Sequence record: PZ445551.1 | Length of the DNA stretch: 64,000 nt | Origin: a phage | Strand: one strand, 5' to 3' | Part shown: piece after piece, positions 2,855-45,357 of the stretch | Layout: every line of letters begins with the position of its first letter | How positions within the stretch are numbered: position 1 is the stretch's first letter | Translations under genes and position numbers: made by a program | The notes under the pieces: generated by a model | Database searches by the model: none | Told to the model about the DNA's origin: nothing | The model's input: the letters and a program-made list of their open reading frames with translations, nothing else

Positions 2855-3220
2855 TTAAACGTTTTCTAAATCTTTTAAGGCATTACCCAACGTTAGAACA
2901 ATAACATCGTTTGCTGCCTCTTCCCCATTGATATTGGTGAAATTTGGTGTGACAAAAGTAACCATATAAAACTCGTCCACCTGGAAGATAGCAATAACAC
3001 CATCCATCTTAACATCTTGACGAAAGGAAAAACCAATCATCTTCTCTTGCAAAGGCATATCCCCTTCCTTCATTACCGCTAGGGAGTTTTCAGGAATGTT
3101 ATATTTATCTGCTCCGATGTAGATGTACGTAATGTTATCTTTATCGTGATGATACAGGGTTGCTTTTTCCATATCTAAACCTGACAGATCAAATACGTTA
3201 ATTTCTTGTGTAGTCTTCAT
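2855..3220 (-). CDS. hypothetical protein (121 aa)
   Basis: Start refined to MKTTQEINV with SD GGGAGGA; short overlap with upstream gene. Confidence 0.5.
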   Translation of the reverse strand: MKTTQEINVFDLSGLDMEKATLYHHDKDNITYIYIGADKYNIPENSLAVMKEGDMPLQEKMIGFSFRQDVKMDGVIAIFQVDEFYMVTFVTPNFTNINGEEAANDVIVLTLGNALKDLENV

Positions 3221-3584
3221 AAATATCCTCCCAAATCCAATAATCATCTGTGTAAGTAGGATGCCTTTTATCCCACTCTGTTCTAGCCCAAGCAACCGCT
3301 GCTACCAACACATCACCATGACAAGGTTGAGGTGAGCAGAAGCAAACTAAGTCTTTCCCTTCTAATTCTAACAAATCCTCAAGAGTGATTTTACCACAAC
3401 GAATTTGTTCCCACAACCACTCTTTATATCTTTGTATAGTTGATCCTCGTGGTTCATCATCCTTTAACTTAAAAGGATTTGCAAACTTTGAGGCTTTTAA
3501 CCCCATATGAGGCATAGCTCTGCCAATGTACACTGCACCTTCAGGTATTACTTTACCTAAGTGGTAAAAATTTAATACTTTCAT
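3198..3584 (-). CDS. DUF4326-like protein
   Basis: Motifs VYIGRAMP, ANPF and LVCFCSPQPCHGDVLV resemble DUF4326 as recalled; TAATATG coupling with upstream gene. Confidence 0.6.
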   Translation of the reverse strand: MKVLNFYHLGKVIPEGAVYIGRAMPHMGLKASKFANPFKLKDDEPRGSTIQRYKEWLWEQIRCGKITLEDLLELEGKDLVCFCSPQPCHGDVLVAAVAWARTEWDKRHPTYTDDYWIWEDIYEDYTRN

Positions 3585-9001: not shown

Positions 9002-9439
9002 ATGAGTAAAACAAACGCAATCGCAGATAAAGCAACTGATGTACTTCTGAACATGGTTAACGTCACTATTCAAACAATGAGTGATGTTGTAGAGTTTGGA
9101 AAACAACAAATTCCAGAAGTAATTCATCAATTATTAGTGTGGAAAGCAGTATCCGCAGGTTTATGGCAACTTTTTAGTATTTGCTTTATGTTTATTACTT
9201 TTATTGCTGTGCGGAACCTCGTAAAAGCAATTAAAGATAAAGAATGCCTGTGGTCACGAGATCGCTATGGTGAAGTATCTGCTTTACCTATTGTTGGCCT
9301 TGTTGTCTGTGCTTTCTTTTTCTTTTTAGGATTTGTTATTTTCTTTTCGAATTTTGATTGGCTAAAAATCATTATTGCACCAAAAGTGTATCTGATTGAA
9401 TTTGCTGCTGATTTAATTCGTTCATCTCAACAAAAATAA
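9002..9439 (+). CDS. membrane protein (145 aa)
   Basis: Multiple hydrophobic helices; SD GTGAGGAA upstream. Confidence 0.55.
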   Translation: MSKTNAIADKATDVLLNMVNVTIQTMSDVVEFGKQQIPEVIHQLLVWKAVSAGLWQLFSICFMFITFIAVRNLVKAIKDKECLWSRDRYGEVSALPIVGLVVCAFFFFLGFVIFFSNFDWLKIIIAPKVYLIEFAADLIRSSQQK

Positions 9440-9451
9440 AAGGGGTTTAAA

Positions 9452-10579
9452 ATGAAATACACGATTTATGGTGATATTGTAAGTGTAAATAAAGATATGG
9501 GCGTGGAATCTAACTATCTTCCACCAGGATTCTATACTGTTAGTCGTGATCCCCTTGGCAATTATTTTTTAAGCCGTGGTAATCTGACAGGTGTACCGGA
9601 TGTTTTGTATGGTGAAACAGAAAAACGAGCAAATCACGTTATCCGTACATTCCATCGCCGGAGTGCACAAGGTAAAAACACAGGCTTGCTTCTGACAGGA
9701 ACTAAGGGCAGTGGTAAAACTATGTTAGCCAAACTCATTAGTCGTGACCTTGTAGAAGAAGGTATTCCAACTATTATGGTTACTCAAGCCTATAGTGATG
9801 CTAATTTCATTGAACTTATTAGCAAGATCACCGACAAAGCAGTGATTATTTTTGACGAGTTTGATAAAGTATATGAGAAGAAACAAGATCAAGAAGCACT
9901 TCTCACTTTGTTAGATGGTACTGGCAGTGGTAATAAACTGTTTATTCTGACTAAAAACAGTGGTTTTATCTCTGAATTCTTTTTAAATCGTCCTAGTCGT
10001 GTGTTTTATAATTTTAATTATGATAAAATCTCACTAGAAACTATGATTGACTATTTAGATAAAAACCTGGATAACAAAGCACACTTTGATAATTTCCAAA
10101 GACTTTGGGATGTAAGTTTAGAGTTGTCCTTTGATGTGATCCAAGGTATAGTAGAAGAACTTAATTTCTACCCTGATTTATCCTTTAAAGAATGTATCTC
10201 TATGATGGGCGTTTCTTTAGGTGGTGGTAATAAATGGGATATCAGCAGTGTTGTTATTAATGGGAAACTTCAGAAAGTTAGCTGGGTATCTAGTTGGCAT
10301 AACTTTACACCTGCAATCTTTTTAGGTGGCTCGTGCACACTAGACGTGTACTTGTCATCTCCAAGTGATGCAGACTCTAAAGAAGCCCTTGCTAATAGCT
10401 CTTACGTGGTTTTTGATGATGAAGGAGATGCTCGAATTCCATTGAATGCGACAAAAATGAAAGCAGATCTTATTACAGGCGGTAAAATCGTTGTGTTTAG
10501 TGATGATCCAGAAGATTCTTTCCGTATTGTTCTGGAACCAACTATCACCAATGGTGCAACTTTGGCAAGTGTGTTTTAA
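9452..10579 (+). CDS. AAA+ family ATPase
   Basis: Walker A GTKGSGKT, Walker B IIFDEFDK. Confidence 0.75.
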   Translation: MKYTIYGDIVSVNKDMGVESNYLPPGFYTVSRDPLGNYFLSRGNLTGVPDVLYGETEKRANHVIRTFHRRSAQGKNTGLLLTGTKGSGKTMLAKLISRDLVEEGIPTIMVTQAYSDANFIELISKITDKAVIIFDEFDKVYEKKQDQEALLTLLDGTGSGNKLFILTKNSGFISEFFLNRPSRVFYNFNYDKISLETMIDYLDKNLDNKAHFDNFQRLWDVSLELSFDVIQGIVEELNFYPDLSFKECISMMGVSLGGGNKWDISSVVINGKLQKVSWVSSWHNFTPAIFLGGSCTLDVYLSSPSDADSKEALANSSYVVFDDEGDARIPLNATKMKADLITGGKIVVFSDDPEDSFRIVLEPTITNGATLASVF

Positions 10580-10595
10580 GTAAGCCAGCAAATAA

Positions 10596-10618
10596 AAACC
10601 CGCTCCGGCGGGTTTTCT
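10596..10618 (+). terminator. rho-independent terminator
   Basis: Hairpin ACCCGCTCCGGCGGGT followed by TTTTCTTG. Confidence 0.6.
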
Positions 10619-10653
10619 TGTATTGATACCAGATTTAATAAGAGGAGTAATAG

Positions 10654-11826
10654 ATGACAGCACCAAAATCATGGGAACAATATAAAGAAGAATTAACACC
10701 CCTTGCTAAAAATCACAATATTCAAATCCTGGGTTATGTTGGTGAATGGAAAGGGAACAAGACTAAACTTAAGCTATCTTGCCCTAAACATGGAGAGTGG
10801 AACACCACGAACATTAATGATTTTAAGAAGGGACGTGGTTGTCCTATCTGTTCTGGTAAGAAGCCGTTAACATGGGAAACAGAATTGCCGATCTTGGAAG
10901 AGATAGCACAGAAGAGGGGGTATCAGGTGTTAGGGTACGTGGGAGAATGGAAAGGGAATAAAACAAAACTTGATTTGTTGTGTCATTGTGGTAATAAATG
11001 GGATACTACAAGTATTAACAATTTTAAACGTGGTAGCGGTTGTCCACAATGTAAGAGGGAGAGACAAACAATGTCCGACGATCAACATATTGCAGATTTC
11101 TTTTCTACAGGGGAATTTAAGGAAGGCACTATCTTCACCAATACAGGGAAACGTAACAAGCGTGATGCAGTATGGATGGTTGAGTGTCCTGTTTGCTCCC
11201 ATGATGAATATGTTCAAGCAGGTGTTTGTGATGGTAAATTTTACTCTGCAGGACATAACCTTAAACAAGGGTATATTCCGTGTCGTTGTGGGAACTATCA
11301 GTATACAGAAGACCAGATCACCTATAGGGTAAAAAAGGAAGTAGAAGGGAAAGGGTATGTCTGGGTAGATTGGATTACCAAACCCTCTTCTATAGGTAAG
11401 TTTAAATATCTTTGTCTTGTGCATGGTGAGCAGATAGGGAGTGCTCGTAATTTATTAAGCCTCGGTCAAGGTTGTCCACAGTGTGCTGGTCATAATCAAC
11501 AGCAATTATATATTAATATTGTTAAAGATAATGATATTATAGTTGCCCTTAAGTTTGGTATATCTAAAGATAGCGATAGACGATTAAACGGTCAAAATAG
11601 CCGTAATCTGTTTTTTATGGAGCGTATTTGTTTATATGATTTTAGCACAGTGAAACAATGTAGGGCTGCTGAAAGAGCTATAAAGAAAAAATTAAAAACT
11701 GGTATTTTAACGGCAAGAGAGTTGAAAGATGGTTATACAGAAACAGTAAGTGTTTCTGATTTGGAAAATCTTCAAAAAATTATTACACAATATGGTGGCA
11801 AATTAGTATACAGTAAGGAGATGTAA
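10654..11826 (+). CDS. zinc-ribbon repeat protein with C-terminal T5orf172/GIY-YIG-like domain (putative nuclease)
   Basis: Four repeats of a CxxC/H..GCPxC unit (e.g. GCPICSGKK, GCPQCKRER, GCPQCAGHN); C-terminus LYINIVKDNDIIVALKFGISKDSDRRL resembles T5orf172 as recalled. Confidence 0.55.
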   Translation: MTAPKSWEQYKEELTPLAKNHNIQILGYVGEWKGNKTKLKLSCPKHGEWNTTNINDFKKGRGCPICSGKKPLTWETELPILEEIAQKRGYQVLGYVGEWKGNKTKLDLLCHCGNKWDTTSINNFKRGSGCPQCKRERQTMSDDQHIADFFSTGEFKEGTIFTNTGKRNKRDAVWMVECPVCSHDEYVQAGVCDGKFYSAGHNLKQGYIPCRCGNYQYTEDQITYRVKKEVEGKGYVWVDWITKPSSIGKFKYLCLVHGEQIGSARNLLSLGQGCPQCAGHNQQQLYINIVKDNDIIVALKFGISKDSDRRLNGQNSRNLFFMERICLYDFSTVKQCRAAERAIKKKLKTGILTARELKDGYTETVSVSDLENLQKIITQYGGKLVYSKEM

Positions 11827-12378
11827 ATGCGGATTACTGATAAGTATGTGTTCTTCTTCTCGGCAAAAGATGAATTTAGCAACTGGTATCTATCATCTTT
11901 TATTGAACCTTTAGCTCCCAAGTATAATAATTCTATTACAAGTTCTGTTGAATTTACTTGTGTGGAACAATATATGATGTGGAGAAAAGCATGTTTGTTT
12001 TATGATTACAACATTGCATCTTCTATTTTAACCGGAGATCTAAGATATACAGGAGAAAAAGAACAAGCATATTATAAGCGACTAGGCAGATTAGTTAAAG
12101 ATTATGATGAAGATACCTGGACTTCTTTACGGGAGAAGATTGTCAAACGTGGTTTGTATCTTAAATACACACAAAATGAAGATCTCAAAAATAAACTTAT
12201 AGCCTACGCAGATAAGGAGTTCGTAGAGGCAAGCCCTTATGATTCTATTTATGGTATCAAAATGGGGATGTGGGATCGGGACGTGGAAAATAAGGATTGT
12301 TGGAAAGGACAAAATCTTTTAGGAAAATGGCATACAGACCTTGCTGTTTATCTAAAAGCACAATCTGATATTTCCTGA
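11827..12378 (+). CDS. NADAR (YbiA-like) domain protein
   Basis: DEFSNWYLSSF, FTCVEQYMMWRKA, and C-terminal D..WG....NLLGK match NADAR signature regions. Confidence 0.75.
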   Translation: MRITDKYVFFFSAKDEFSNWYLSSFIEPLAPKYNNSITSSVEFTCVEQYMMWRKACLFYDYNIASSILTGDLRYTGEKEQAYYKRLGRLVKDYDEDTWTSLREKIVKRGLYLKYTQNEDLKNKLIAYADKEFVEASPYDSIYGIKMGMWDRDVENKDCWKGQNLLGKWHTDLAVYLKAQSDIS

Positions 12379-37639: not shown

Positions 37640-37665
37640 AAACCCGCTTCGGCGGGTTTTCTTGT
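37640..37665 (+). terminator. rho-independent terminator
   Basis: Hairpin CCCGCTTCGGCGGG followed by TTTTCTTG. Confidence 0.65.
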
Positions 37666-37930: not shown

Positions 37931-38009
37931 ATGACTTTACTAGAGAGTATCGTAGTGTTAATCATCTTTATCATTGTTGTCATAGGATATTTTACAGAAG
38001 ACTAAAATA

Positions 38010-38040
38010 AAGCCCCCTAGAAGCGATTCTAGGGGCTTTT
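38010..38040. terminator. bidirectional terminator at convergent block junction
   Basis: Hairpin CCCCTAGAA-GCGA-TTCTAGGGG flanked by A-run upstream and T-run downstream. Confidence 0.65.
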
Positions 38041-38106
38041 GTTTGCATTAGATAGGGAAACGTATTACTAAAATAAAAAGTGCGTTAGAATGCGTTACAG
38101 GAGGTT

Positions 38107-38364
38107 TTAGGAATGCATAAAATCTTCTTCAGGGCAGGTTGAGAGATAAGAGATGCACGTTGGGACAACAACAACATTATCTTTAAGGTTTGCAACCAAG
38201 CCTTTTGTAATTCCAGCCACTGCCCCGTTAATATCTGCTTGACGGATACCAAAACCTTGTTGTGCGGATAGATAACAAAATCCCTCACCTTTCTGTTGAT
38301 TATTATTGAAGTAATAAACGTAGTGCATCATAAAATGGTCTTTAACGATTTGTTCTGTGGTCAT
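38107..38364 (-). CDS. hypothetical protein (85 aa)
   Basis: ORF preceded on minus strand by hairpin + T-run + SD GGAGAA. Confidence 0.5.
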   Translation of the reverse strand: MTTEQIVKDHFMMHYVYYFNNNQQKGEGFCYLSAQQGFGIRQADINGAVAGITKGLVANLKDNVVVVPTCISYLSTCPEEDFMHS

Positions 38365-38382
38365 AATATTCTCCTATAAGAA

Positions 38383-38402
38383 AAAAGGGGCTTTCGCCCC
38401 TT
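38383..38402 (-). terminator. hairpin + U-tract module directly upstream of SD
   Basis: GGGGCGAAAGCCCC then TTTTTTCTTAT on minus strand. Confidence 0.5.
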
Positions 38403-38409
38403 GGTCAAG

Positions 38410-39222
38410 TTACTTAGTCAAATGATCTTCTATCATTTTTATGAAAGCAGGATTGCTAAAAGCATCTGCTGCCTTTTCTCTATAAACAAAGACTCCTCTA
38501 TCTTCGTAAAGAAGAGTTTCTTCGTAATTAATTCCTGGGTTAACAACAATCATTTTTATACCCATAGTAAGTGCAGGGAATAATTCCCAATTAAAATTGA
38601 TAACTTGGTTTGAACATCCTACTACAACAACCAAATCTTGCATGGTCAAAGTATCAAACAAGTGAGCCATATCTGCATACAAAGGTGCAGCCTCACCAAA
38701 AAATACAACATTAGGCTTCACCCAGTTATAATCATCTATGTTTATACTATTGTAACCAATGTCTACCAGTGTTTTGTAATCTCCAGGGTGCATACGGTAA
38801 ACTACTTCAGGAAGATACCCGTGCACGTGAATAACAGAATCCCTGTCCACACCTGCTCGCTCTAGTAGATCATCAACGTTTGTTGTCAAGTTTACTACTT
38901 GGTTAGGATATTCCTTAAACCACTTTGCTATTTGAATATGTGCAGCATTAGGTTGTACATCTTTAAGCTCAACACGTCTTTTGTTATAAAATTCGTGTGT
39001 TTTGGCATACAAGTCCATACCGTTCTCGTCTACACCACCGACCACTGGAAGATCTGGAGATGTTCTCACACGATAACCTGCTTGGAAAGCTCCAATATCG
39101 CAGACCTCTTCTAAATCATATTCTTCCCACAAGGCACGACCACTATCTGTGTCTGTTCGGAATGTTCGAATCCCACTGTCTGCACTTAAACCTGCGCCAC
39201 TAACAAAAATTACTCTTCGCAT
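38410..39222 (-). CDS. Sir2-family NAD-dependent deacylase or ADP-ribosyltransferase-like protein
   Basis: GAGLSADSGIRTFR, TTNVDDLLERAG, HVHG, VVFFGE, LVVVVGCS; no CxxC zinc-binding pairs. Confidence 0.8.
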   Translation of the reverse strand: MRRVIFVSGAGLSADSGIRTFRTDTDSGRALWEEYDLEEVCDIGAFQAGYRVRTSPDLPVVGGVDENGMDLYAKTHEFYNKRRVELKDVQPNAAHIQIAKWFKEYPNQVVNLTTNVDDLLERAGVDRDSVIHVHGYLPEVVYRMHPGDYKTLVDIGYNSINIDDYNWVKPNVVFFGEAAPLYADMAHLFDTLTMQDLVVVVGCSNQVINFNWELFPALTMGIKMIVVNPGINYEETLLYEDRGVFVYREKAADAFSNPAFIKMIEDHLTK

Positions 39223-39764
39223 TCAATATCCTCTTCGTAATCATCATCCCAAGAAGATGCGTCGTAACGCTCTTCCTCTTCGAAATCCCAATTAATTTCT
39301 ACTCCAAAATCTAAAAACAATTTAACAATGTTTTCTGTAGAGTAGTATTTATCATAAGCGTCAGCTAGTTCCCAATACTTGTCACTCAATTTTTTATATT
39401 TAGGATCATTATAGTCATAATCTACTTTATAACCATAATCATACATCTCTTGTTCAGCTTTAAGCATAGCTTCTGGTGTAAGAAGATTAGGGAACGGACG
39501 ATTTCTTTCTTTTAACTTAGAAACAATCCAGTTTGCAACATTTGCCACTTCACCATCTTGATTATCACCTAAACAACTTGCATAATCTCCATCTTCGTAA
39601 GTGCCTAAATCCCCACAGACCACATGTACAATACTTGAATACGATCCACACGTTTCACAATCTGAAAAAGTGTCTACTGTTGTAATATCAATAGATAAAA
39701 CTGGTAAAGCCATAGCTTCTTTCACACAAGCCTCCTCATATAATAACATATCATCAAAACCCAT
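39210..39764 (-). CDS. highly acidic Cys/Tyr-rich hypothetical protein
   Basis: Start refined to MGFDDML with SD GGAGGA; C-terminus WDFEEEERYDASSWDDDYEEDIECEE. Confidence 0.5.
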   Translation of the reverse strand: MGFDDMLLYEEACVKEAMALPVLSIDITTVDTFSDCETCGSYSSIVHVVCGDLGTYEDGDYASCLGDNQDGEVANVANWIVSKLKERNRPFPNLLTPEAMLKAEQEMYDYGYKVDYDYNDPKYKKLSDKYWELADAYDKYYSTENIVKLFLDFGVEINWDFEEEERYDASSWDDDYEEDIECEE

Positions 39765-39783
39765 ATATCCTCCACACAAATAA

Positions 39784-39803
39784 AGCCCCTGATTGGGGCT
39801 TTG
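39784..39803 (-). terminator. hairpin + U-tract module upstream of SD
   Basis: AGCCCCAATCAGGGGCT then TTTATTTGT on minus strand. Confidence 0.45.
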
Positions 39804-39818
39804 GTTAAGTTTTACGGA

Positions 39819-40427
39819 TTATACCAGACTTTTAAGGTACTTGTCAAGGGCTTCTTGATCACCTTGACAAACATAGCAACGGAAGTCTTGAGCAGAAGGT
39901 TCTTTGTCCTCGTCCCAATCCCAATAGACAGTACCTTTATAACGTGAGCCTGGGAACTCGAAATATGCTGTATGAGTAATATGATGTGGGCCACCCCAAA
40001 ACTGTGTAAAAGTAAATTGAGGATACGCTGCTTTAACTGTATTTTCAAACCAAGTTTTACGATCTAATGCTTCGTTTATAAAATAAGCATGGCGTTCCAT
40101 TTCATCCCAGTTTTTCCAAACGCATTTTTCATCCAGAGAAAAAACAAAATCTTCACTGTTGAATTCATCTGTATCTTCCAAAATATCATAATCATGTGCA
40201 CTAGGTATCCACCATCCAGCTTCTAATAGTGCTTTCACGGGTACAAAACCTTTTTCAGCATATTGATCAAATTCTTTTACTCTACGTACAGTGCAGTATT
40301 CATCTTCACCACCAATGTCCAGTAGAAAAGCACCTTTGCGTCTTGCTGCAAGACCATGTGTATCAAAAACTACAACACTACCTTCACCATCTTCACGATC
40401 TACTTGATATGCAACTTTTTGAGTCAT
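39819..40427 (-). CDS. hypothetical protein (about 202 aa)
   Basis: Start refined to MTQKVAYQ; longer track ORF starts at a TTG. Confidence 0.5.
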   Translation of the reverse strand: MTQKVAYQVDREDGEGSVVVFDTHGLAARRKGAFLLDIGGEDEYCTVRRVKEFDQYAEKGFVPVKALLEAGWWIPSAHDYDILEDTDEFNSEDFVFSLDEKCVWKNWDEMERHAYFINEALDRKTWFENTVKAAYPQFTFTQFWGGPHHITHTAYFEFPGSRYKGTVYWDWDEDKEPSAQDFRCYVCQGDQEALDKYLKSLV

Positions 40428-40551
40428 ATTACCCCCCAATGTACATGGGAAATTAACCAAAAGATAAATTCCCAAAAACACCAACCAAGAAAAGTTAATG
40501 GAATTATAAAAGCTATCAGAGCAGTCTTCCAGCCTTTCCACAATGTTTCCA

Positions 40552-41541
40552 CTATTCCTCCATACATTTAAGAATATGTGCAATGACAGGTATAGTCCAA
40601 CCGTTACCTAACATCTTATATGCTTGTGTGTTACTACTCACTTTAAAGTAATCATCTGGAACACCTTGTAAGCGGCAACACTCTTTAACCGTTAACTTTC
40701 TATAATGTACGCCTTCACTCAATTTTTCAAAGGCATCTAGATATCTTCCAGGTGGAATGTAGGCTAATAGTACGTCTTTAGGCACAGTCGTGAGGCAACG
40801 AGTTTTTTCACTGTCCTGAACTTCCAAACAATGTACCAAACGATCAGTTTTAGATGTACTACGTTTGCCATTTTCATTAATTCTACGCCCATATATTGCT
40901 GCCGGATAAAAAACCAGTTGTCTGCGACTCTTTTCAAAATACTGTTCTATATTACCACCTTTGGCATAATTTGCATCTATGCAATAAGCCTTATCTCTGT
41001 CTACAATACTATCATCTTCAATTATATCTTGCAACACTTCATTGGTAATCTCCCAGGGTTTTATTTCCCAGTTGCACCAGTATAAACGTTGTCTATTCTG
41101 TGCCGTGAAATCTGCGGAGTTAATGAATACGGGATCAACACCTAAGTAACTTGTGATCACGTTTTCCCACTCCATTTTCATCTTAACGTTTTCAAGCATG
41201 AACTTAACATTAGGATTAAACTTTTTAATATGTTCAAGAATTTCAACATATTCGAAGAATAGCTTAGATCGTGGATCTTGAAAGTTCAAACCCTTACCAG
41301 AAGAAGAGAAGCCTTGACACGGACTACCACCTAACAAAAGATCAATTTCTCCCCACGGGATATCCCATTCTCTCCATTTTGTAACATCACCTAACTGAAT
41401 AATATCTGGAAAATTTGCTTGGCTTTCAGCTACGGCAAATTTGTCTAATTCTGAAGCGTAATATGTATCTACTTCAATACCTGCACTTTTTAGCGCAAGC
41501 ATTCCTCCTGACATACCATCAAAAAGACTTAAAACTTTCAT
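40552..41541 (-). CDS. dcm: DNA (cytosine-5)-methyltransferase
   Basis: Motif I LFDGMSGG, motif IV GSPCQGFS, motif VI ENVKMK, QNRQRLYW, GNGWTIPV. Confidence 0.85.
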   Translation of the reverse strand: MKVLSLFDGMSGGMLALKSAGIEVDTYYASELDKFAVAESQANFPDIIQLGDVTKWREWDIPWGEIDLLLGGSPCQGFSSSGKGLNFQDPRSKLFFEYVEILEHIKKFNPNVKFMLENVKMKMEWENVITSYLGVDPVFINSADFTAQNRQRLYWCNWEIKPWEITNEVLQDIIEDDSIVDRDKAYCIDANYAKGGNIEQYFEKSRRQLVFYPAAIYGRRINENGKRSTSKTDRLVHCLEVQDSEKTRCLTTVPKDVLLAYIPPGRYLDAFEKLSEGVHYRKLTVKECCRLQGVPDDYFKVSSNTQAYKMLGNGWTIPVIAHILKCMEE

Positions 41542-41543
41542 TA

Positions 41544-41954
41544 TTACTTCTTCTCCTTAACACTAGCTGGTAATTCTGCCTTGAGGCAGAAGTTTAAACG
41601 GTAAGCCTCATTCTCATTTAAAAGTACAGATTCACACGATAACCAGAACAAGAGATCCTCAATACCAGGACTGTTAAGCCAACAGTGCAGAAGAGAATGT
41701 TGTTCTATATCAATGTAATTTAGTAACAAGGCTTGTAAGGCGTAACTAGTTCCTGTCGTTTTTGCTTTTTCAAGGATGATATTGTGTTTACTAACAACTT
41801 TCTTCCTAAGACCAAACCATTTATTAACAACAACAGTCTCTTCTTGTAGTTGTTTTCTTATTTTCTCACATTCTTTAACTACAATCTGCATCTTATCCAC
41901 TGCTGATTGAAGTTGTTCTTTTGTTGGGTTTACAAAATAATCACTATAATACAT
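41544..41954 (-). CDS. hypothetical protein (136 aa)
   Basis: Preceded on minus strand by terminator, TTGACA-N17-TAGACT promoter-like element and SD GAGGAG. Confidence 0.55.
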   Translation of the reverse strand: MYYSDYFVNPTKEQLQSAVDKMQIVVKECEKIRKQLQEETVVVNKWFGLRKKVVSKHNIILEKAKTTGTSYALQALLLNYIDIEQHSLLHCWLNSPGIEDLLFWLSCESVLLNENEAYRLNFCLKAELPASVKEKK

Positions 41955-42007
41955 GCTAAACTCCTCTTCTGTTTTTCTGTAGTCTATTCGAAAAAACTGG
42001 TGTTGTC

Positions 42008-42033
42008 AACAAAAAACCCGCCGAAGCGGGTTT
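42008..42033 (-). terminator. rho-independent terminator
   Basis: ACCCGCTTCGGCGGGT followed by TTTTTTG on minus strand. Confidence 0.6.
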
Positions 42034-42036
42034 ATA

Positions 42037-42294
42037 TTATTCTACAGGAACTTCTTCACCAAGAGAAACTTCTAAACGGAATGCTTTACTTTCAATACAT
42101 TCACTACCTTTTAGAAAATCAAATTGCACTATAGACTGACTTAATAGGATAGATAGAATCACATCACAATCTTCACTAGGAGCTAGATGTTTGTATTCTT
42201 CCTTCAAGGTAACATCATAAAAACATAAATCCCCTACTCCTAGTTCATCCCATCCTTCCCACGCATCTACAAAGTTAAACTCTAAACCTTTCAT
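42037..42294 (-). CDS. hypothetical protein (85 aa)
   Basis: ORF in same-strand block. Confidence 0.5.
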   Translation of the reverse strand: MKGLEFNFVDAWEGWDELGVGDLCFYDVTLKEEYKHLAPSEDCDVILSILLSQSIVQFDFLKGSECIESKAFRLEVSLGEEVPVE

Positions 42295-42815
42295 ACAACC
42301 TCCTCGTAATTGTTATTGTGTTTTACTGTCTCAACATACAATAAAGATTCCATCTGTAATACATTACCAGAAATAATAAACCCATAAGCCATTTCAGATG
42401 TGTCTATATCATATGCCCCGTCTTCCGGTTTAGCAAAGTGTAAAACTATTTCATCTGGGTTTTCTTCATCCCATAGTTTAGAAATTTTCCGAACCAGAAT
42501 GTTAGCTAAAATAGTTGACATTCGGGATAAAGCTGTATCCTCATATCTTTTAAAACCTAGCCAATAGAGGTTAAGAATTTCTACTTCTTCTTGTGTTAAG
42601 TTTTTGTCTAAAGTAATCAGATCTGTAGAGCACGGCGTTTTTGTTGAACCTACGGTTACAAAACCTGGAGTGTTATGAAAAACAATCTTAACTTTATCAC
42701 GTATAAAGTTTAAACCTTGTGCCTCAACTATATATTGTATTGTAGGTACAATATCGTTTGTTACATCAATAAAACTATCTTTAATGACGCTTATATTATT
42801 TCTGGACAAGACCAT
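42291..42815 (-). CDS. hypothetical protein (174 aa)
   Basis: ATGA overlap. Confidence 0.55.
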   Translation of the reverse strand: MVLSRNNISVIKDSFIDVTNDIVPTIQYIVEAQGLNFIRDKVKIVFHNTPGFVTVGSTKTPCSTDLITLDKNLTQEEVEILNLYWLGFKRYEDTALSRMSTILANILVRKISKLWDEENPDEIVLHFAKPEDGAYDIDTSEMAYGFIISGNVLQMESLLYVETVKHNNNYEEVV

Positions 42816-43374
42816 TCTCCTCTAAAATAGGCTTAATAAACTCGAAAATTTGTTTTTTACTTTTACCTCGAATATTAAAACAAGGAACATTAAACTTTTT
42901 AGCCAACATCCAAGCTGTTCTTGTACCACCTAAAGGATCTCCATTTTTATCTGTATTTGCACAAGCTAAAAGAAAACAAGATGGTTTTGGATTCTCAAGA
43001 TCTCTTCCAAGAACTTGGTGAATATTTCTTTGATGTAATTTTTTAGAACCTTGAGATAATCTGTCCCAAGCTGGATGCAATTCTTTTGCATATTGCAAGG
43101 TTAGAGCATAGTTTACACTATCTGGTCTGTCAAGAACAATAACCTCTCCCTCTATTTCATTACCTTTAAACGAGAGCCAAGGGATGTATATTTCTTTCTT
43201 TGTATTGTTCCCACTATCATATACCCCGCATTCAAATGCGGAATCTGCACCTGCTGCTTTACCAGATCGCAAAATGAACCATGTAGATAACCATTTTGCA
43301 ACAGATACCATAGTATCCCATTCTTCGTCTGTAATATCTCTGCTACCAACACCTGTGTAGAATAAATCGCTCAT
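42796..43374 (-). CDS. DprA/Smf-like (SLOG superfamily) Rossmann-fold protein
   Basis: TGVGSRDIT, SGKAAGADSAFECG, HQRNIHQVLG, GGTRTAW pattern resembles DprA Rossmann core; start refined with SD AAGGAG. Confidence 0.5.
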   Translation of the reverse strand: MSDLFYTGVGSRDITDEEWDTMVSVAKWLSTWFILRSGKAAGADSAFECGVYDSGNNTKKEIYIPWLSFKGNEIEGEVIVLDRPDSVNYALTLQYAKELHPAWDRLSQGSKKLHQRNIHQVLGRDLENPKPSCFLLACANTDKNGDPLGGTRTAWMLAKKFNVPCFNIRGKSKKQIFEFIKPILEENGLVQK

Positions 43375-43384
43375 GGTTTTCTCC

Positions 43385-43705
43385 TTAACAAGTAATATTG
43401 GGAGTAACAATTGGATTAACAATTGGAGTAATAGGGTACGTAAACCAAGGGCTTCCAATTTCCCAAGGATTATAAGGTCTACGAGGATCAAATGGAGGAG
43501 TTACTTCAGGCTTTTTCCAAATCTCCGCTAGTTGTTTCTTCCATTTATCCCTTGCTGTCTCATTATCTTCATCCAACTGTTCATCATTATCTTTTATTTC
43601 TGGTTTTGGAAATAAAAGCTCTTTGACTAACTCAACATCTTCCGTCTCAATAGTAGTTTCTTTCGTAAGTTCTCCTACTGTTTCTTTAATTGTGATTTTA
43701 TACAT
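43385..43705 (-). CDS. hypothetical protein with Pro-rich C-terminus (106 aa)
   Basis: ORF in same-strand block. Confidence 0.5.
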   Translation of the reverse strand: MYKITIKETVGELTKETTIETEDVELVKELLFPKPEIKDNDEQLDEDNETARDKWKKQLAEIWKKPEVTPPFDPRRPYNPWEIGSPWFTYPITPIVNPIVTPNITC

Positions 43706-44448
43706 TAGTCCTCCTCTAAAGTAGAATAAAATTGTAACGTATTTGAATCATCAAAATATGCAAAGGTTAAATTACCATTGAAGCAAGATCCTGTGTCCAT
43801 ATATACCCTATTACTGCTAATCACAGGTTTAGGAACATAAGAATGCCCGTGAAATACATAATCTACTCCTGAAACCCTAGGGAGAAGAATTCCTTCAAGT
43901 GCGCAATCTATCATATCACGATCCCACATTAAAGATTCTGTGAATCGAGAAACTTGCTCTTTATTCATATTCAAACAAAATGGCAAAACTTCTGTCACTG
44001 GTAAATGTTTCAAAACTGAAGGATACCCACCGTGAATAAAGCCTAGTTTCATATTACGATAATTGACAACAAGTACAACAGGTAAATCTTCTAGCATCAA
44101 AGCAAGAGCAGTTGCACCCTCTTCTCCACACTCGTCTAGAACTGTATGGCCTCCGTTCTGAAACCAACATTCGTAATATCGTCTATCACCTTCTAGCAAC
44201 CCTTTAATCATCATATCTTCATGATTTCCACGAATACCATAACGATTTAGCTTTCTGGTGAATTCAACAACACAACGAAAATTCTGCTTGCCGCGATCTG
44301 TAAGATCTCCTAAAGATACAACAACATCTTGATCTCGGATACCTAAAGTATTAACACCTTTCTGGTACAAATCAAAGCAACCATGTAAATCACCAATAAT
44401 AAACAGGTCTTGATCATCTTTTACACTAATTTCTTGATATACTAGCAT
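43705..44448 (-). CDS. serine/threonine protein phosphatase (PPP / lambda-PPase family metallophosphoesterase)
   Basis: GDLHGC, GDLTDRG, GNHE, GHS motifs; start refined to ATG overlapping upstream stop. Confidence 0.85.
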   Translation of the reverse strand: MLVYQEISVKDDQDLFIIGDLHGCFDLYQKGVNTLGIRDQDVVVSLGDLTDRGKQNFRCVVEFTRKLNRYGIRGNHEDMMIKGLLEGDRRYYECWFQNGGHTVLDECGEEGATALALMLEDLPVVLVVNYRNMKLGFIHGGYPSVLKHLPVTEVLPFCLNMNKEQVSRFTESLMWDRDMIDCALEGILLPRVSGVDYVFHGHSYVPKPVISSNRVYMDTGSCFNGNLTFAYFDDSNTLQFYSTLEED

Positions 44449-44774
44449 CAACTCTCCTCAAAATCCATAAGTATAAAGATATTAACTTTACCTTCTATAT
44501 TATGTTCTACAACAAGATCTGCAAATTCTTTGTAGGCTTTTTCTTCTATTTGTTCAATGTGAGACGCTACATCTTTGTATATAGCGTCACCATCTACTTT
44601 AACAAGGAGGAATAGAGATCTTACTTCAATCTCTTTATTTTTACGGGGTAGAAAATCGACGGCTTCTTGTATACGCCAGCCGAGATACCCTGGAGTCCTT
44701 TGAATATCCTCCAAATGACTTTCTAAGATTTCCCTTCCTTTGTCTATTAAAGCCTGTTCTGTCGTTATTTTCAT
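44448..44774 (-). CDS. hypothetical protein (108 aa)
   Basis: ORF in same-strand block. Confidence 0.55.
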   Translation of the reverse strand: MKITTEQALIDKGREILESHLEDIQRTPGYLGWRIQEAVDFLPRKNKEIEVRSLFLLVKVDGDAIYKDVASHIEQIEEKAYKEFADLVVEHNIEGKVNIFILMDFEES

Positions 44775-44784
44775 CCCCTTCTCC

Positions 44785-45357
44785 TTAATGTGTTAATGAA
44801 ACTGCGTAACTAAACACAGGTTCAGATATTACATCGGCTACAGTAATAAAAACGTCTTCGTCTTGAGTTGTTTCTACACGACATACAGTTACACCATTCA
44901 CCACGAATTCAACGCAATGTGGAATATCTTCACAAACGAAGGTAGTGTAAGTAACACCCAAAGCATCATACAAAGATTTAACAGTGTTTGCAAGTGCCGC
45001 AGTTTCTTCTTTTTCTGAGACAATGAATGCTGTAACAACAAGATTGTTTGCATAGTTTAGACTGTCCTCTATAGCCAATGATTTACAAGGTAGTAATGCA
45101 AAATATTTACCTGGTTTAATCAGACCTGCTTCCCATTGATTCAAAATTGCTTGGGATGGTTTAGTAATATAAAACAGATTTTCACTTGGGTTATCAATAT
45201 TACTTCTGGCGATACAACGTGAAGGATTATTAATATCAAACACATGATCAAAATCTACACAAACTGGTAAACTGAAAGGTGTGAATTTTTTACCTAATAA
45301 TCCTACTGCTGACAATATGTTTGCTGTGCTTATCTTCCCGTTAAAAGCTAAACGCAT
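44785..45357 (-). CDS. hypothetical protein (190 aa)
   Basis: ORF in same-strand block. Confidence 0.55.
   Translation of the reverse strand: MRLAFNGKISTANILSAVGLLGKKFTPFSLPVCVDFDHVFDINNPSRCIARSNIDNPSENLFYITKPSQAILNQWEAGLIKPGKYFALLPCKSLAIEDSLNYANNLVVTAFIVSEKEETAALANTVKSLYDALGVTYTTFVCEDIPHCVEFVVNGVTVCRVETTQDEDVFITVADVISEPVFSYAVSLTH

Follow-up and report, generated by a model that had tools for sequence, protein, structure and literature searches.

Are a Sir2-like protein and a SLOG-fold protein that are encoded close together in a phage genome two parts of one system, or two genes that share a neighborhood? This question is raised by a locus in sequence record PZ445551.1, of which a stretch of 64,000 nucleotides (the window) was analyzed. 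The window encodes, on the minus strand, a phage sirtuin (Sir2) and a stand-alone protein of the SLOG superfamily that is annotated as 'DprA-like'. The two genes are separated by 3,574 bp and by seven genes, every one on the same strand. A preliminary description of the window had delimited this block at 38410-43374, which coincides exactly with the Sir2 stop codon and the start of the SLOG gene, and had rightly put the two genes about 3.5 kb apart. It had also proposed that they form a pair resembling ThsA, the effector of Thoeris defense. The analysis points elsewhere. With moderate confidence, we regard Sir2 and SLOG as two independent accessory genes, the first encoding an active enzyme that uses nicotinamide adenine dinucleotide (NAD+) and the second a protein related to ADP-ribose.

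The order of genes and predicted signals argues for separate units. They are listed below in gene order toward Sir2. The promoter-like and terminator-like calls are consensus pattern matches, not transcript data.

43705-44451, minus strand: Ser/Thr phosphatase, first in gene order toward Sir2
Minus strand, between the phosphatase and the SLOG gene: protein of 106 amino acids (aa)
42796..43374, minus strand: stand-alone SLOG-fold protein, 192 aa, 'DprA-like' (PHROG 768, phi92 gp047)
Minus strand, downstream of the SLOG gene: 174-aa and then 85-aa proteins, forming a trio with the SLOG gene
42014..42033, minus strand: terminator-like hairpin closing the SLOG trio
42009-41981, minus strand: promoter-like site after the hairpin of the SLOG trio
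Minus strand, between the 85-aa gene of the trio and the methyltransferase: 136-aa protein
41541-40552, minus strand: Dcm-type C5 methyltransferase
Minus strand, between the methyltransferase and the 184-aa gene: 42-aa open reading frame (ORF), then a 202-aa protein (PHROG 8514)
39818..39847, minus strand: promoter-like site upstream of the 184-aa gene and Sir2, with the sigma-70 consensus TTGACA-18-TATAAT and the TG of an extended -10 (12/12)
39782..39802, minus strand: terminator-like GC hairpin between the PHROG 8514 gene and the 184-aa/Sir2 cassette
39210..39764, minus strand: acidic 184-aa protein (PHROG 9509, E 1e-64)
38410..39222, minus strand: Sir2, 270 aa, zinc-less phage sirtuin of the CobB type (phi92 gp038)
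38385..38402, minus strand: terminator-like hairpin with a T-run, 8 nt past the Sir2 stop codon
Minus strand, after Sir2 and last in order: a second 85-aa protein

Between Sir2 and SLOG there are two terminator-like hairpins and two promoter-like sites. The genes of the SLOG trio overlap by 20 nt and 4 nt. At the other end of the block, the 184-aa gene shares its last 13 nt with the start of Sir2, and these two genes are probably translationally coupled. Sir2 appears to sit in a two-gene cassette with the 184-aa gene, apart from the SLOG unit.

How often are the two families found together elsewhere? Linkage was counted with family hidden Markov models within a radius of 10 kb, in the 59 viral Sir2 loci and 80 SLOG loci listed. 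Of the 59 Sir2 loci listed, 10 have SLOG inside this radius, and of the 80 SLOG loci listed, 12 have Sir2. The linked loci are all from phi92-like relatives, from a related group with convergent genes, or from contigs of 106 and 122 kb that carry a T5-group-like Sir2 (7 kb apart). Both genes are present in 145-kb rV5-like and Mydo-like contigs as well, at a distance of ~20 kb. The host spread of the two families differs: Pseudomonas leads the SLOG records and is outside the top ten for Sir2, and Salmonella accounts for 289 Sir2 records versus 38 SLOG records. Clustering of the 4,890 ORFs in the 139 loci revealed neither a conserved operon partner nor a neighbor common to Sir2 and SLOG. Any one neighbor recurred in at most 7 of the 24 Sir2 lineages and at most 8 of the 44 SLOG lineages. 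Because the two genes lie in separate predicted units, are rarely linked, differ in their hosts and have no common neighbor, their proximity is interpreted as synteny inside one phage group and not as a functional unit. The arrangement that characterizes Thoeris, a defense-type SIR2 fused to a SLOG domain that binds cyclic ADP-ribose (cADPR) and encoded beside a TIR ThsB gene, was not seen at this locus.

The locus itself is well represented in sequence databases. Over 38000-44500, the window matches Escherichia phage VivaForever (PP925843.1) at 100% identity, and a position in that record equals 112201 minus the window position. About 60 further phi92-like phages (Justusliebigvirus) are 97-99% identical over this region, among them phi92 itself and EmilieFrey and PaulScherrer of the BASEL collection. 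Records of phi92-like phages name Sir2 'Sir2 NAD-dependent deacetylase / sirtuin family protein' (phi92 gp038) and the SLOG protein 'DprA-like DNA recombination-mediator protein' (phi92 gp047), and annotated copies of both genes are found in dozens of GenBank phages. Both families are already known from these names, from PHROG entries and from prior in silico analyses (Skliros et al., 2016; Iyer et al., 2022), and the window contributes no new member or architecture to either.

What kind of sirtuin is encoded? Sir2 matches the Pfam family SIR2 (PF02146; E 1.3e-22, 81 bits against a cut-off of 24) and PHROG 2162 (E 9e-105). Its closest solved relatives by sequence are Escherichia coli CobB (E 1.4e-18), then Sir2Af and SIRT5. 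An AlphaFold (AF2) model built from 32 homologues had a mean predicted local distance difference test score (pLDDT) of 87.9. The top Foldseek match of this model was CobB (1s5p; E 3e-17, template modeling score 0.85 on the target), followed by Sir2Af1, SIRT5, Sir2Tm, SIRT2 and Hst2. The comparison with ThsA that the preliminary description had called for went against its proposal, as no ThsA or DSR chain was among the 50 matches listed of 276 with E <= 0.001. A PADLOC scan of Sir2 gave no ThsA, DSR or HerA-SIR2 match. Assignment to ThsA or a defense type was rejected, as Pfam, PADLOC and NCBIfam returned only canonical sirtuin matches for Sir2.

The residues that define sirtuins are retained. 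Sir2 has the Rossmann NAD+ core with the GAGxS, FR, (T/Q)N-x-D and HG motifs, the Gln of TQN being replaced by Thr. In the 32 homologues, which are 55-91% identical to the window protein, 56 positions are invariant, all catalytic and NAD-contacting residues included; the claim that the NAD-binding motifs are kept was therefore correct. The invariant residues include GAGLS at 9-13 (G9-A-G-x-S13), F21/R22, Y79/R82/R83, P91-N92, N115/D117 (TTNVDD), H134-G135, K169-P-N-V, FFGE at 174-177 (F174-F-x-E177), G202xS204 and N228. The Tyr-x-x-Arg dyad of class III sirtuins such as SIRT5 and CobB binds the carboxylate of succinyl and malonyl groups. This dyad is present, with Y79/R82 aligning to the FYNARR of CobB (Y92/R95). 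Proteins of the family are strongly acidic, with a median pI of 4.96 and a net charge of about -13.5, and have no nucleic-acid-binding domain. Judged by sequence and predicted fold, Sir2 is a CobB/SIRT5-type (class III/U) sirtuin, a phage-specific offshoot and not of the defense SIR2 type.

The preliminary description was also right that the CxxC pairs of canonical sirtuins are missing. The only cysteines of Sir2 are C41 and C203, both outside the small module (residues 135-172) to which the four zinc cysteines of E. coli CobB align. With no cysteine in the zinc module, Sir2 is a variant of the superfamily in which the four-cysteine structural zinc site is lost, and its membership of the superfamily stands. 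The small module was modeled by AlphaFold with high confidence as a three-stranded sheet. The core Sir2 clade was taken as the phi92-like contigs and the other viral contigs of 90-155 kb examined, including T5-like, rV5-like and Mydo-like ones (by size and annotation). Every member of this clade has lost all four cysteines, has an 8-residue deletion in the second cysteine loop, and carries TTN and GCS or GAS. Distant jumbo-phage homologues (L061 and L062, 36-37% identity) retain the four zinc cysteines, TQN and GTS. Because these keep the cysteines and TQN while the entire core clade has lost them, the loss of zinc and the changes from TQN to TTN and from GTS to GCS are interpreted as derived, clade-wide traits and no peculiarity of the phi92-like phage. 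The missing site is not new, since Skliros et al. (2016; PMC5107563) noted in silico that it is absent from the Sir2/CobB proteins of Vibrio phages phiSt2 and KVP40. Their list of carriers comprises T5, SPC35, GAP32, My1 and JD001, and they reported that a phage NAMPT co-occurs.

Sir2 was found in 982 phage records, mainly of Escherichia, Salmonella (289) and Klebsiella, and the family is phage-specific among the matches listed. A large share of the records appears to come from the T5-like group. Two records labeled 'Campylobacter phage B15 / A112b' (MG065650.1, MG065682.1; genomes of 135-150 kb) carry Sir2 at 97% and 47% identity, and their host labels look questionable. Phage B15 also has a SLOG gene at 65% identity.

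The gene coupled to Sir2 encodes a very acidic protein of 184 aa in which a CxxC...C pattern is conserved. It was found upstream of Sir2 only in phi92-like relatives (L004, L005 and L007-L009). The idea that this protein supplies a zinc ribbon in trans was not supported, as CxxC and one further Cys are conserved and the fourth is not. A match to the NCBIfam L32 model was under its cut-off. It is possible that the 184-aa acidic CxxC protein is a partner or regulator of the zinc-less sirtuin.

Is the 'DprA-like' protein a DprA? The SLOG protein matches PHROG 768 (E 4e-59), and scans with Pfam, PADLOC and NCBIfam were empty (PF02481 gave none at E <= 1). A phmmer search against solved structures found nothing, and the family profile reached DprA in the PDB only marginally (E 0.03, N-terminal 45 residues only). 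The AlphaFold model (pLDDT 96.7) is a single domain with an extra helix at residues 87-99. Its fold is the Rossmannoid three-layer fold of the SLOG superfamily, with a glycine-rich loop after strand 1 and a GGxT-type motif. Foldseek ranked Helicobacter pylori DprA first (E 1e-6), then MCP, Streptococcus pneumoniae DprA, LOG, ShosA and the SLOG domain of ThsA. The likeness to DprA that the preliminary description had drawn is thus upheld by fold, and that to ThsA ranks below DprA, MCP, LOG and ShosA. Four motifs are kept in the family as counterparts of those in the DprA Rossmann domain: YTGVGSR, LRSGxAxGADxAF, LHxRNxxQVxG and GGTRTA. The motif arginines R12 and R116 are conserved. Of 40 family members, 31 match PF02481 weakly and below its cut-off (best E 3.6e-6) and 7 match 'SLOG cluster 4'. 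The window protein itself does not reach the PF02481 gathering score, and as a single-domain protein of 192 aa it lacks the N-terminal SAM and C-terminal winged-helix domains of DprA/Smf. The SLOG protein is predicted to lie nearest the DprA/MCP branch, yet it fails as a member of the DprA family. The family is near-neutral (median pI 7.4).

The relatives of the SLOG protein point to another chemistry. The family occurs in 1,231 phage records, led by Pseudomonas (232), then Klebsiella, Escherichia, Aeromonas, Vibrio and Acinetobacter, with only 38 from Salmonella. An exhaustive profile search returned 5,904 cluster representatives, most of which stand alone and are 175-200 aa long. The best 150 of these include four that are fused to NADAR (P0254, P0347, P0241 and P0242; two NADAR-SLOG proteins and two giant multi-SLOG-NADAR proteins) and three that are fused to DUF4326 (P0330, P0345 and P0342). 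NADAR is a family of DNA ADP-ribosyl-glycohydrolases. Over the whole domain, the window SLOG is 42% identical to NADAR-SLOG P0254 and 34% to DUF4326-SLOG P0330. A NADAR or DUF4326 gene was also found within ~1 kb of the SLOG gene in three loci (L121, L136 and L106). The association with NADAR, Macro or DUF4326 that marks viral SLOGs of ADP-ribose metabolism is therefore found in relatives, and the window SLOG stands alone. SLOG fusions with NADAR, Macro and DUF4326 were described previously, and viral SLOGs were proposed to act on ADP-ribose derivatives (Iyer et al., 2022; PMC9503650). Behind the 'DprA-like' annotation there is probably a SLOG of ADP-ribose chemistry. The NARP3 and Kongming papers were considered and set aside, as they concern proteins other than these two.

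Other genes of the same chemistry are dispersed over the phage genome, in the window and, by the coordinates of VivaForever, outside it.

11827..12378, plus strand: NADAR-domain protein, 183 aa, 'hypothetical' in GenBank (PF08719, E 2.5e-36), ~27 kb from Sir2
3198..3584, minus strand: DUF4326-domain protein, 128 aa (PF14216, E 1.4e-21; tblastn with the DUF4326 parts of the SLOG fusions)
PP925843.1 119778-120512, outside the window: Macro-domain protein annotated 'phosphatase', ~46 kb from Sir2
PP925843.1 35221-37934, outside the window: NAMPT and phosphoribosyl pyrophosphate synthetase (Prs)
PP925843.1 40830-45497, outside the window: module of phosphoesterase, RNA ligase 1, AAA_33 kinase, DNA ligase and MazG

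The phage carries a dispersed NAD/ADP-ribose toolkit of Sir2, SLOG, NADAR, DUF4326, Macro, NAMPT and Prs. The first 25 nt of its NADAR gene are identical to the gene-specific part of the cloning primer for NADAR^Bas60, a protein that was tested against DarTG1 (PMC11257639). NAMPT adjoins Sir2 in locus L060 and lies near Sir2 in a Klebsiella Mydo-like phage. The general NAD/ADP-ribose theme suggested for this locus is borne out in part: the catalytic residues of Sir2 are kept, relatives of SLOG are fused to NADAR and DUF4326, and the toolkit genes are present. The support is indirect, and the theme was already predicted (PMC9503650). The DUF4326 gene at 3198-3584 is named 'NrdA-like ribonucleotide reductase' in GenBank, a name that looks wrong.

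How might the two proteins act? Tentatively, Sir2 is assigned as an active NAD+-dependent lysine deacylase of the CobB type, a role that we consider quite possible though short of probable. It is favored because the nearest relatives in sequence and fold are deacylases, because the mechanism residues and the acyl-carboxylate dyad are invariant, and because the protein is acidic, lacks nucleic-acid-binding features and co-occurs with nicotinamide salvage and Macro. Sir2 would consume NAD+, release nicotinamide and move ADP-ribose to an anionic acceptor. In the middle phase of infection it would deacylate lysines (acetyl, succinyl, malonyl) of host or phage proteins. The phage NAMPT could then recycle nicotinamide from the Sir2 reaction, and the Macro protein could remove O-acyl-ADP-ribose. 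The SLOG protein may bind or process an ADP-ribose-linked nucleotide or ADP-ribosylated single-stranded DNA (ssDNA) in counter-defense. An ADP-ribose ligand is favored because of the fusion partners and the DprA-like motifs.

Several points weigh against these assignments. For Sir2, clusters of RNA ligase, kinase and phosphoesterase genes were found nearby in 6-7 of 24 lineages. The zinc module and its flanking loops, which form part of the peptide cleft of canonical sirtuins, are remodeled, so the substrate could be something other than a peptide. The proline of VxP is also lost (GCSNQVINF). For SLOG, the fusions are a small minority (7 of the best 150), and the commonest neighbors are PhoH, methyltransferase and phosphatase, not ADP-ribose enzymes. 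The SLOG protein also carries the four motifs of DprA, which contacts ssDNA and RecA through its Rossmann domain, so a role in recombination, as annotated, is possible. In a literature search, no biochemical study of a phage sirtuin or a phage DprA-like protein was found. Against the independence of the two genes stands L061, a 278-kb viral contig and the sole place seen where a Sir2 relative and a SLOG-like gene may be in one operon, so that some cooperation of Sir2 and SLOG elsewhere is possible. Its 9284-11198 interval holds four overlapping genes, which encode a 146-aa protein, DUF4326, a zinc-containing Sir2 homologue and a PF15891 protein. The PF15891 protein is nucleoside 2-deoxyribosyltransferase-like, of the DrHyd type. 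The 146-aa protein, possibly a SLOG, was not significant against the SLOG family in hhalign and has a weak match to PHROG 289.

The RNA-ligase clusters underlie a serious rival reading of Sir2, although we consider it rather unlikely. Iyer et al. (2022; PMC9503650) predicted from such neighborhoods that viral sirtuins have a KptA-like role in removing RNA 2'-phosphates. Sir2 would be an RNA-repair enzyme of the KptA/Tpt1 kind that uses NAD+ to remove the 2'-phosphate at the ligation junction after attack by an anticodon nuclease of the host. Three other phage enzymes would act first: the phosphoesterase by opening the 2',3'-cyclic phosphate, the P-loop kinase by phosphorylating the 5' end, and RNA ligase 1 by sealing the break. 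The sirtuin would then move ADP-ribose to the 2'-phosphate, with His134 driving the second step, and Macro or DUF4326 would clear the ADP-ribose 1''-2'' cyclic phosphate. In one Klebsiella Mydo-like phage and one rV5-like phage, Sir2 lies inside such a cluster, in the order phosphoesterase, RNA ligase 1, (small ORF), P-loop kinase, Sir2, DNA ligase, further genes and MazG. The association recurs at only ~36% identity: L062 has a T4 Rnl1-type RNA ligase two genes upstream of its zinc-containing Sir2 and a kinase-like gene downstream. The small domain that normally grips the peptide has been rebuilt, Tyr79 and Arg82 could hold a phosphate, and VivaForever has the same module. In VivaForever, however, the module is ~30 kb from Sir2, whereas sister phage groups have Sir2 inside it. 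In one T5-like neighborhood (GreteKellenberger), no RNA ligase was found within 7 kb of Sir2, which lies among small ORFs beside ribonucleotide reductase genes. The acidity of the family and its lack of a nucleic-acid-binding domain also count against a role on RNA. Furthermore, T4-type repair by Pnkp and Rnl1 leaves no 2'-phosphate, and to our knowledge no sirtuin has a 2'-phosphate-removing (Tpt1-like) activity.

For the SLOG protein, the main alternative follows its annotation: as a minimal mediator of recombination, it would bind ssDNA, load host RecA or modulate it, and promote recombination-dependent replication, or else it would mimic the DprA-like antitoxin ShosA. All four DprA Rossmann motifs (GSR, SGxAxGxD, RN, GGT) are conserved, the weak PF02481 matches are widespread, DprA and ShosA rank high in the fold search, and genes of DNA metabolism are among the SLOG neighbors. 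Arginines equivalent to those of the SLOG motifs bind ssDNA in H. pylori DprA and in ShosA (PMC12961424). On the other side, the protein resembles DprA only marginally in sequence, it has neither a SAM nor a winged-helix domain, its family is close to neutral, and the fusion partners are NADAR and DUF4326 rather than recombination proteins. No phage recombinase for such a mediator was found among the candidates, as two PHROG 2376 ATPases and the exonucleases are not RecA/UvsX-like by PHROG. A RecA-loading role is thought less likely than an ADP-ribose ligand, and we regard the mediator as unlikely.

A change of substrate is a similarly unlikely prospect, in which the zinc-less clade has moved off acyl-lysine. 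The His/Tyr/Arg site of Sir2 would ADP-ribosylate a phosphate or other anionic group, such as an RNA 2'-phosphate, and SLOG would be an enzyme or sponge for immune signals derived from ADP-ribose or for ADP-ribosylated ssDNA. The phi92-like Sir2 and its coupled acidic CxxC protein might form a two-subunit enzyme. If true, this would add a Tpt1-like activity to the sirtuins and, with SLOG, a new class of counter-defense proteins. More generally, there is a modest residual chance that a truly new activity is hidden in the zinc-less sirtuin or in SLOG.

Could Sir2 be dead? Loss of the structural zinc site normally destabilizes sirtuins. Sir2 might be inactive, or a plain NAD+ binder or glycohydrolase retained as a decoy or sponge and not as a transferase. 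The Gln of TQN is replaced by Thr, and the same doubt was raised for Vibrio phage sirtuins (Skliros et al., 2016; PMC5107563). The 56 invariant positions with all catalytic and NAD contacts, the confidently modeled small module and the 982 records speak against it, and we find inactivity quite improbable. The weakest alternative, a phage copy of the ThsA domains in which SLOG senses or sequesters cADPR signals and Sir2 consumes NAD+ or the signals, is very hard to uphold, since Sir2 is of the canonical deacylase type and not PF13289/ThsA, SLOG is closer to DprA, MCP and LOG, the genes were never found fused or adjacent and are linked in related phages only, their hosts largely do not overlap, and a phage-borne NADase would hurt a phage that invests in NAD+ salvage.

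Some observations concern the wider window. The hairpin that closes the SLOG trio is a 20-nt GC hairpin, AAACCCGC-TTCG-GCGGGTTT (and its reverse complement), that occurs at 37640-37659 and at 42014-42033, two ends of gene arrays. It is a predicted bidirectional terminator and may be a repeated terminator element of the phage. Two paralogues of 190 aa (PHROG 4806) are encoded at 44785-45357 (minus strand) and at record positions 112365-112937 (L147 165-737). They are named 'histidyl tRNA synthetase', which is doubtful because 190 aa is far too short for a synthetase, and a Pfam scan of the window copy at 44785-45357 gave no match. Two paralogous ATPases of ~380 aa (PHROG 2376), at 9452-10579 (plus strand) and L147 4529-5689, have weak clamp-loader/DnaC-like similarity. 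One of them is immediately followed by the genes for an HNH-type endonuclease and the NADAR protein.

Why do these two proteins matter? Few phage genes that have an obvious enzymatic fold and a predicted role are more common: sirtuins are encoded by ~980 sequenced phages, and SLOG proteins of this family by ~1,230 phages and in thousands of metagenomic clusters. The chemistry of NAD+ and ADP-ribose is central to conflict between phages and bacteria, as in Thoeris, DSR, SIR2-HerA, DarTG and NARP, and the function of either protein would be useful to know. The main value of this analysis is negative: Sir2 and SLOG should not be treated as a ThsA-like unit. Two small positive pointers are the coupling of a sirtuin to an acidic CxxC protein in phi92-like phages and the ADP-ribose-related SLOG that the 'DprA-like' label probably masks.

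How do the two proteins compare with known systems? Sir2 shares the GAGxS, FR, PNxAH, N/D, HG and FGE motifs and Tyr-x-x-Arg with E. coli CobB (PDB 1S5P, 6RXJ), Sir2Af1 and SIRT5. It differs from CobB in the missing zinc cysteines, the 8-residue deletion, TTN, GCS, VINF in place of VxP, its strong acidity and a 25-residue insertion in the helical small domain that varies within the clade. The sirtuins of Vibrio phages phiSt2, phiGrn1 and KVP40 (PMC5107563) belong to the same family and to another lineage, with Vibrio homologues 38-40% identical to the window Sir2. Deacetylation of Acs was proposed for the Vibrio phage sirtuin, without a biochemical test (Skliros et al., 2016; PMC5107563). The 'distinct clade of viral sirtuins' of Iyer et al. 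(PMC9503650), with rV5, Mydo and SP15 as prototypes, is the same family, and its ligase context was reproduced here. The phi92-like gene differs from it in lying ~30 kb off the module and in being coupled to an unrelated acidic protein. In SirTM, the catalytic His is replaced by Gln and the gene is in an operon or fusion with a macrodomain (PMC4518038). Sir2 of the window keeps His134, and the phage Macro gene is ~46 kb distant. The Thoeris effector ThsA combines, in one protein, a Sir2-superfamily and a SLOG-superfamily domain, the folds of the two genes considered here. Compared with DprA/Smf and ShosA, the window SLOG lacks the SAM and winged-helix domains, has the extra helix at 87-99, and has relatives whose fusion partners point to ADP-ribose chemistry. 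The viral SLOGs of Iyer et al. (PMC9503650) are mostly YpsA-like, whereas the window SLOG scores best with DprA and MCP and stands alone, not adjacent to NADAR or DUF4326. Its counterparts in ADP-ribose chemistry are the viral NADAR-SLOG and DUF4326-SLOG fusions, relatives at 34-42% identity, and the phage NADAR AdfN (PMC11257639), alongside which this phage has a NADAR and a DUF4326 protein as stand-alone genes.

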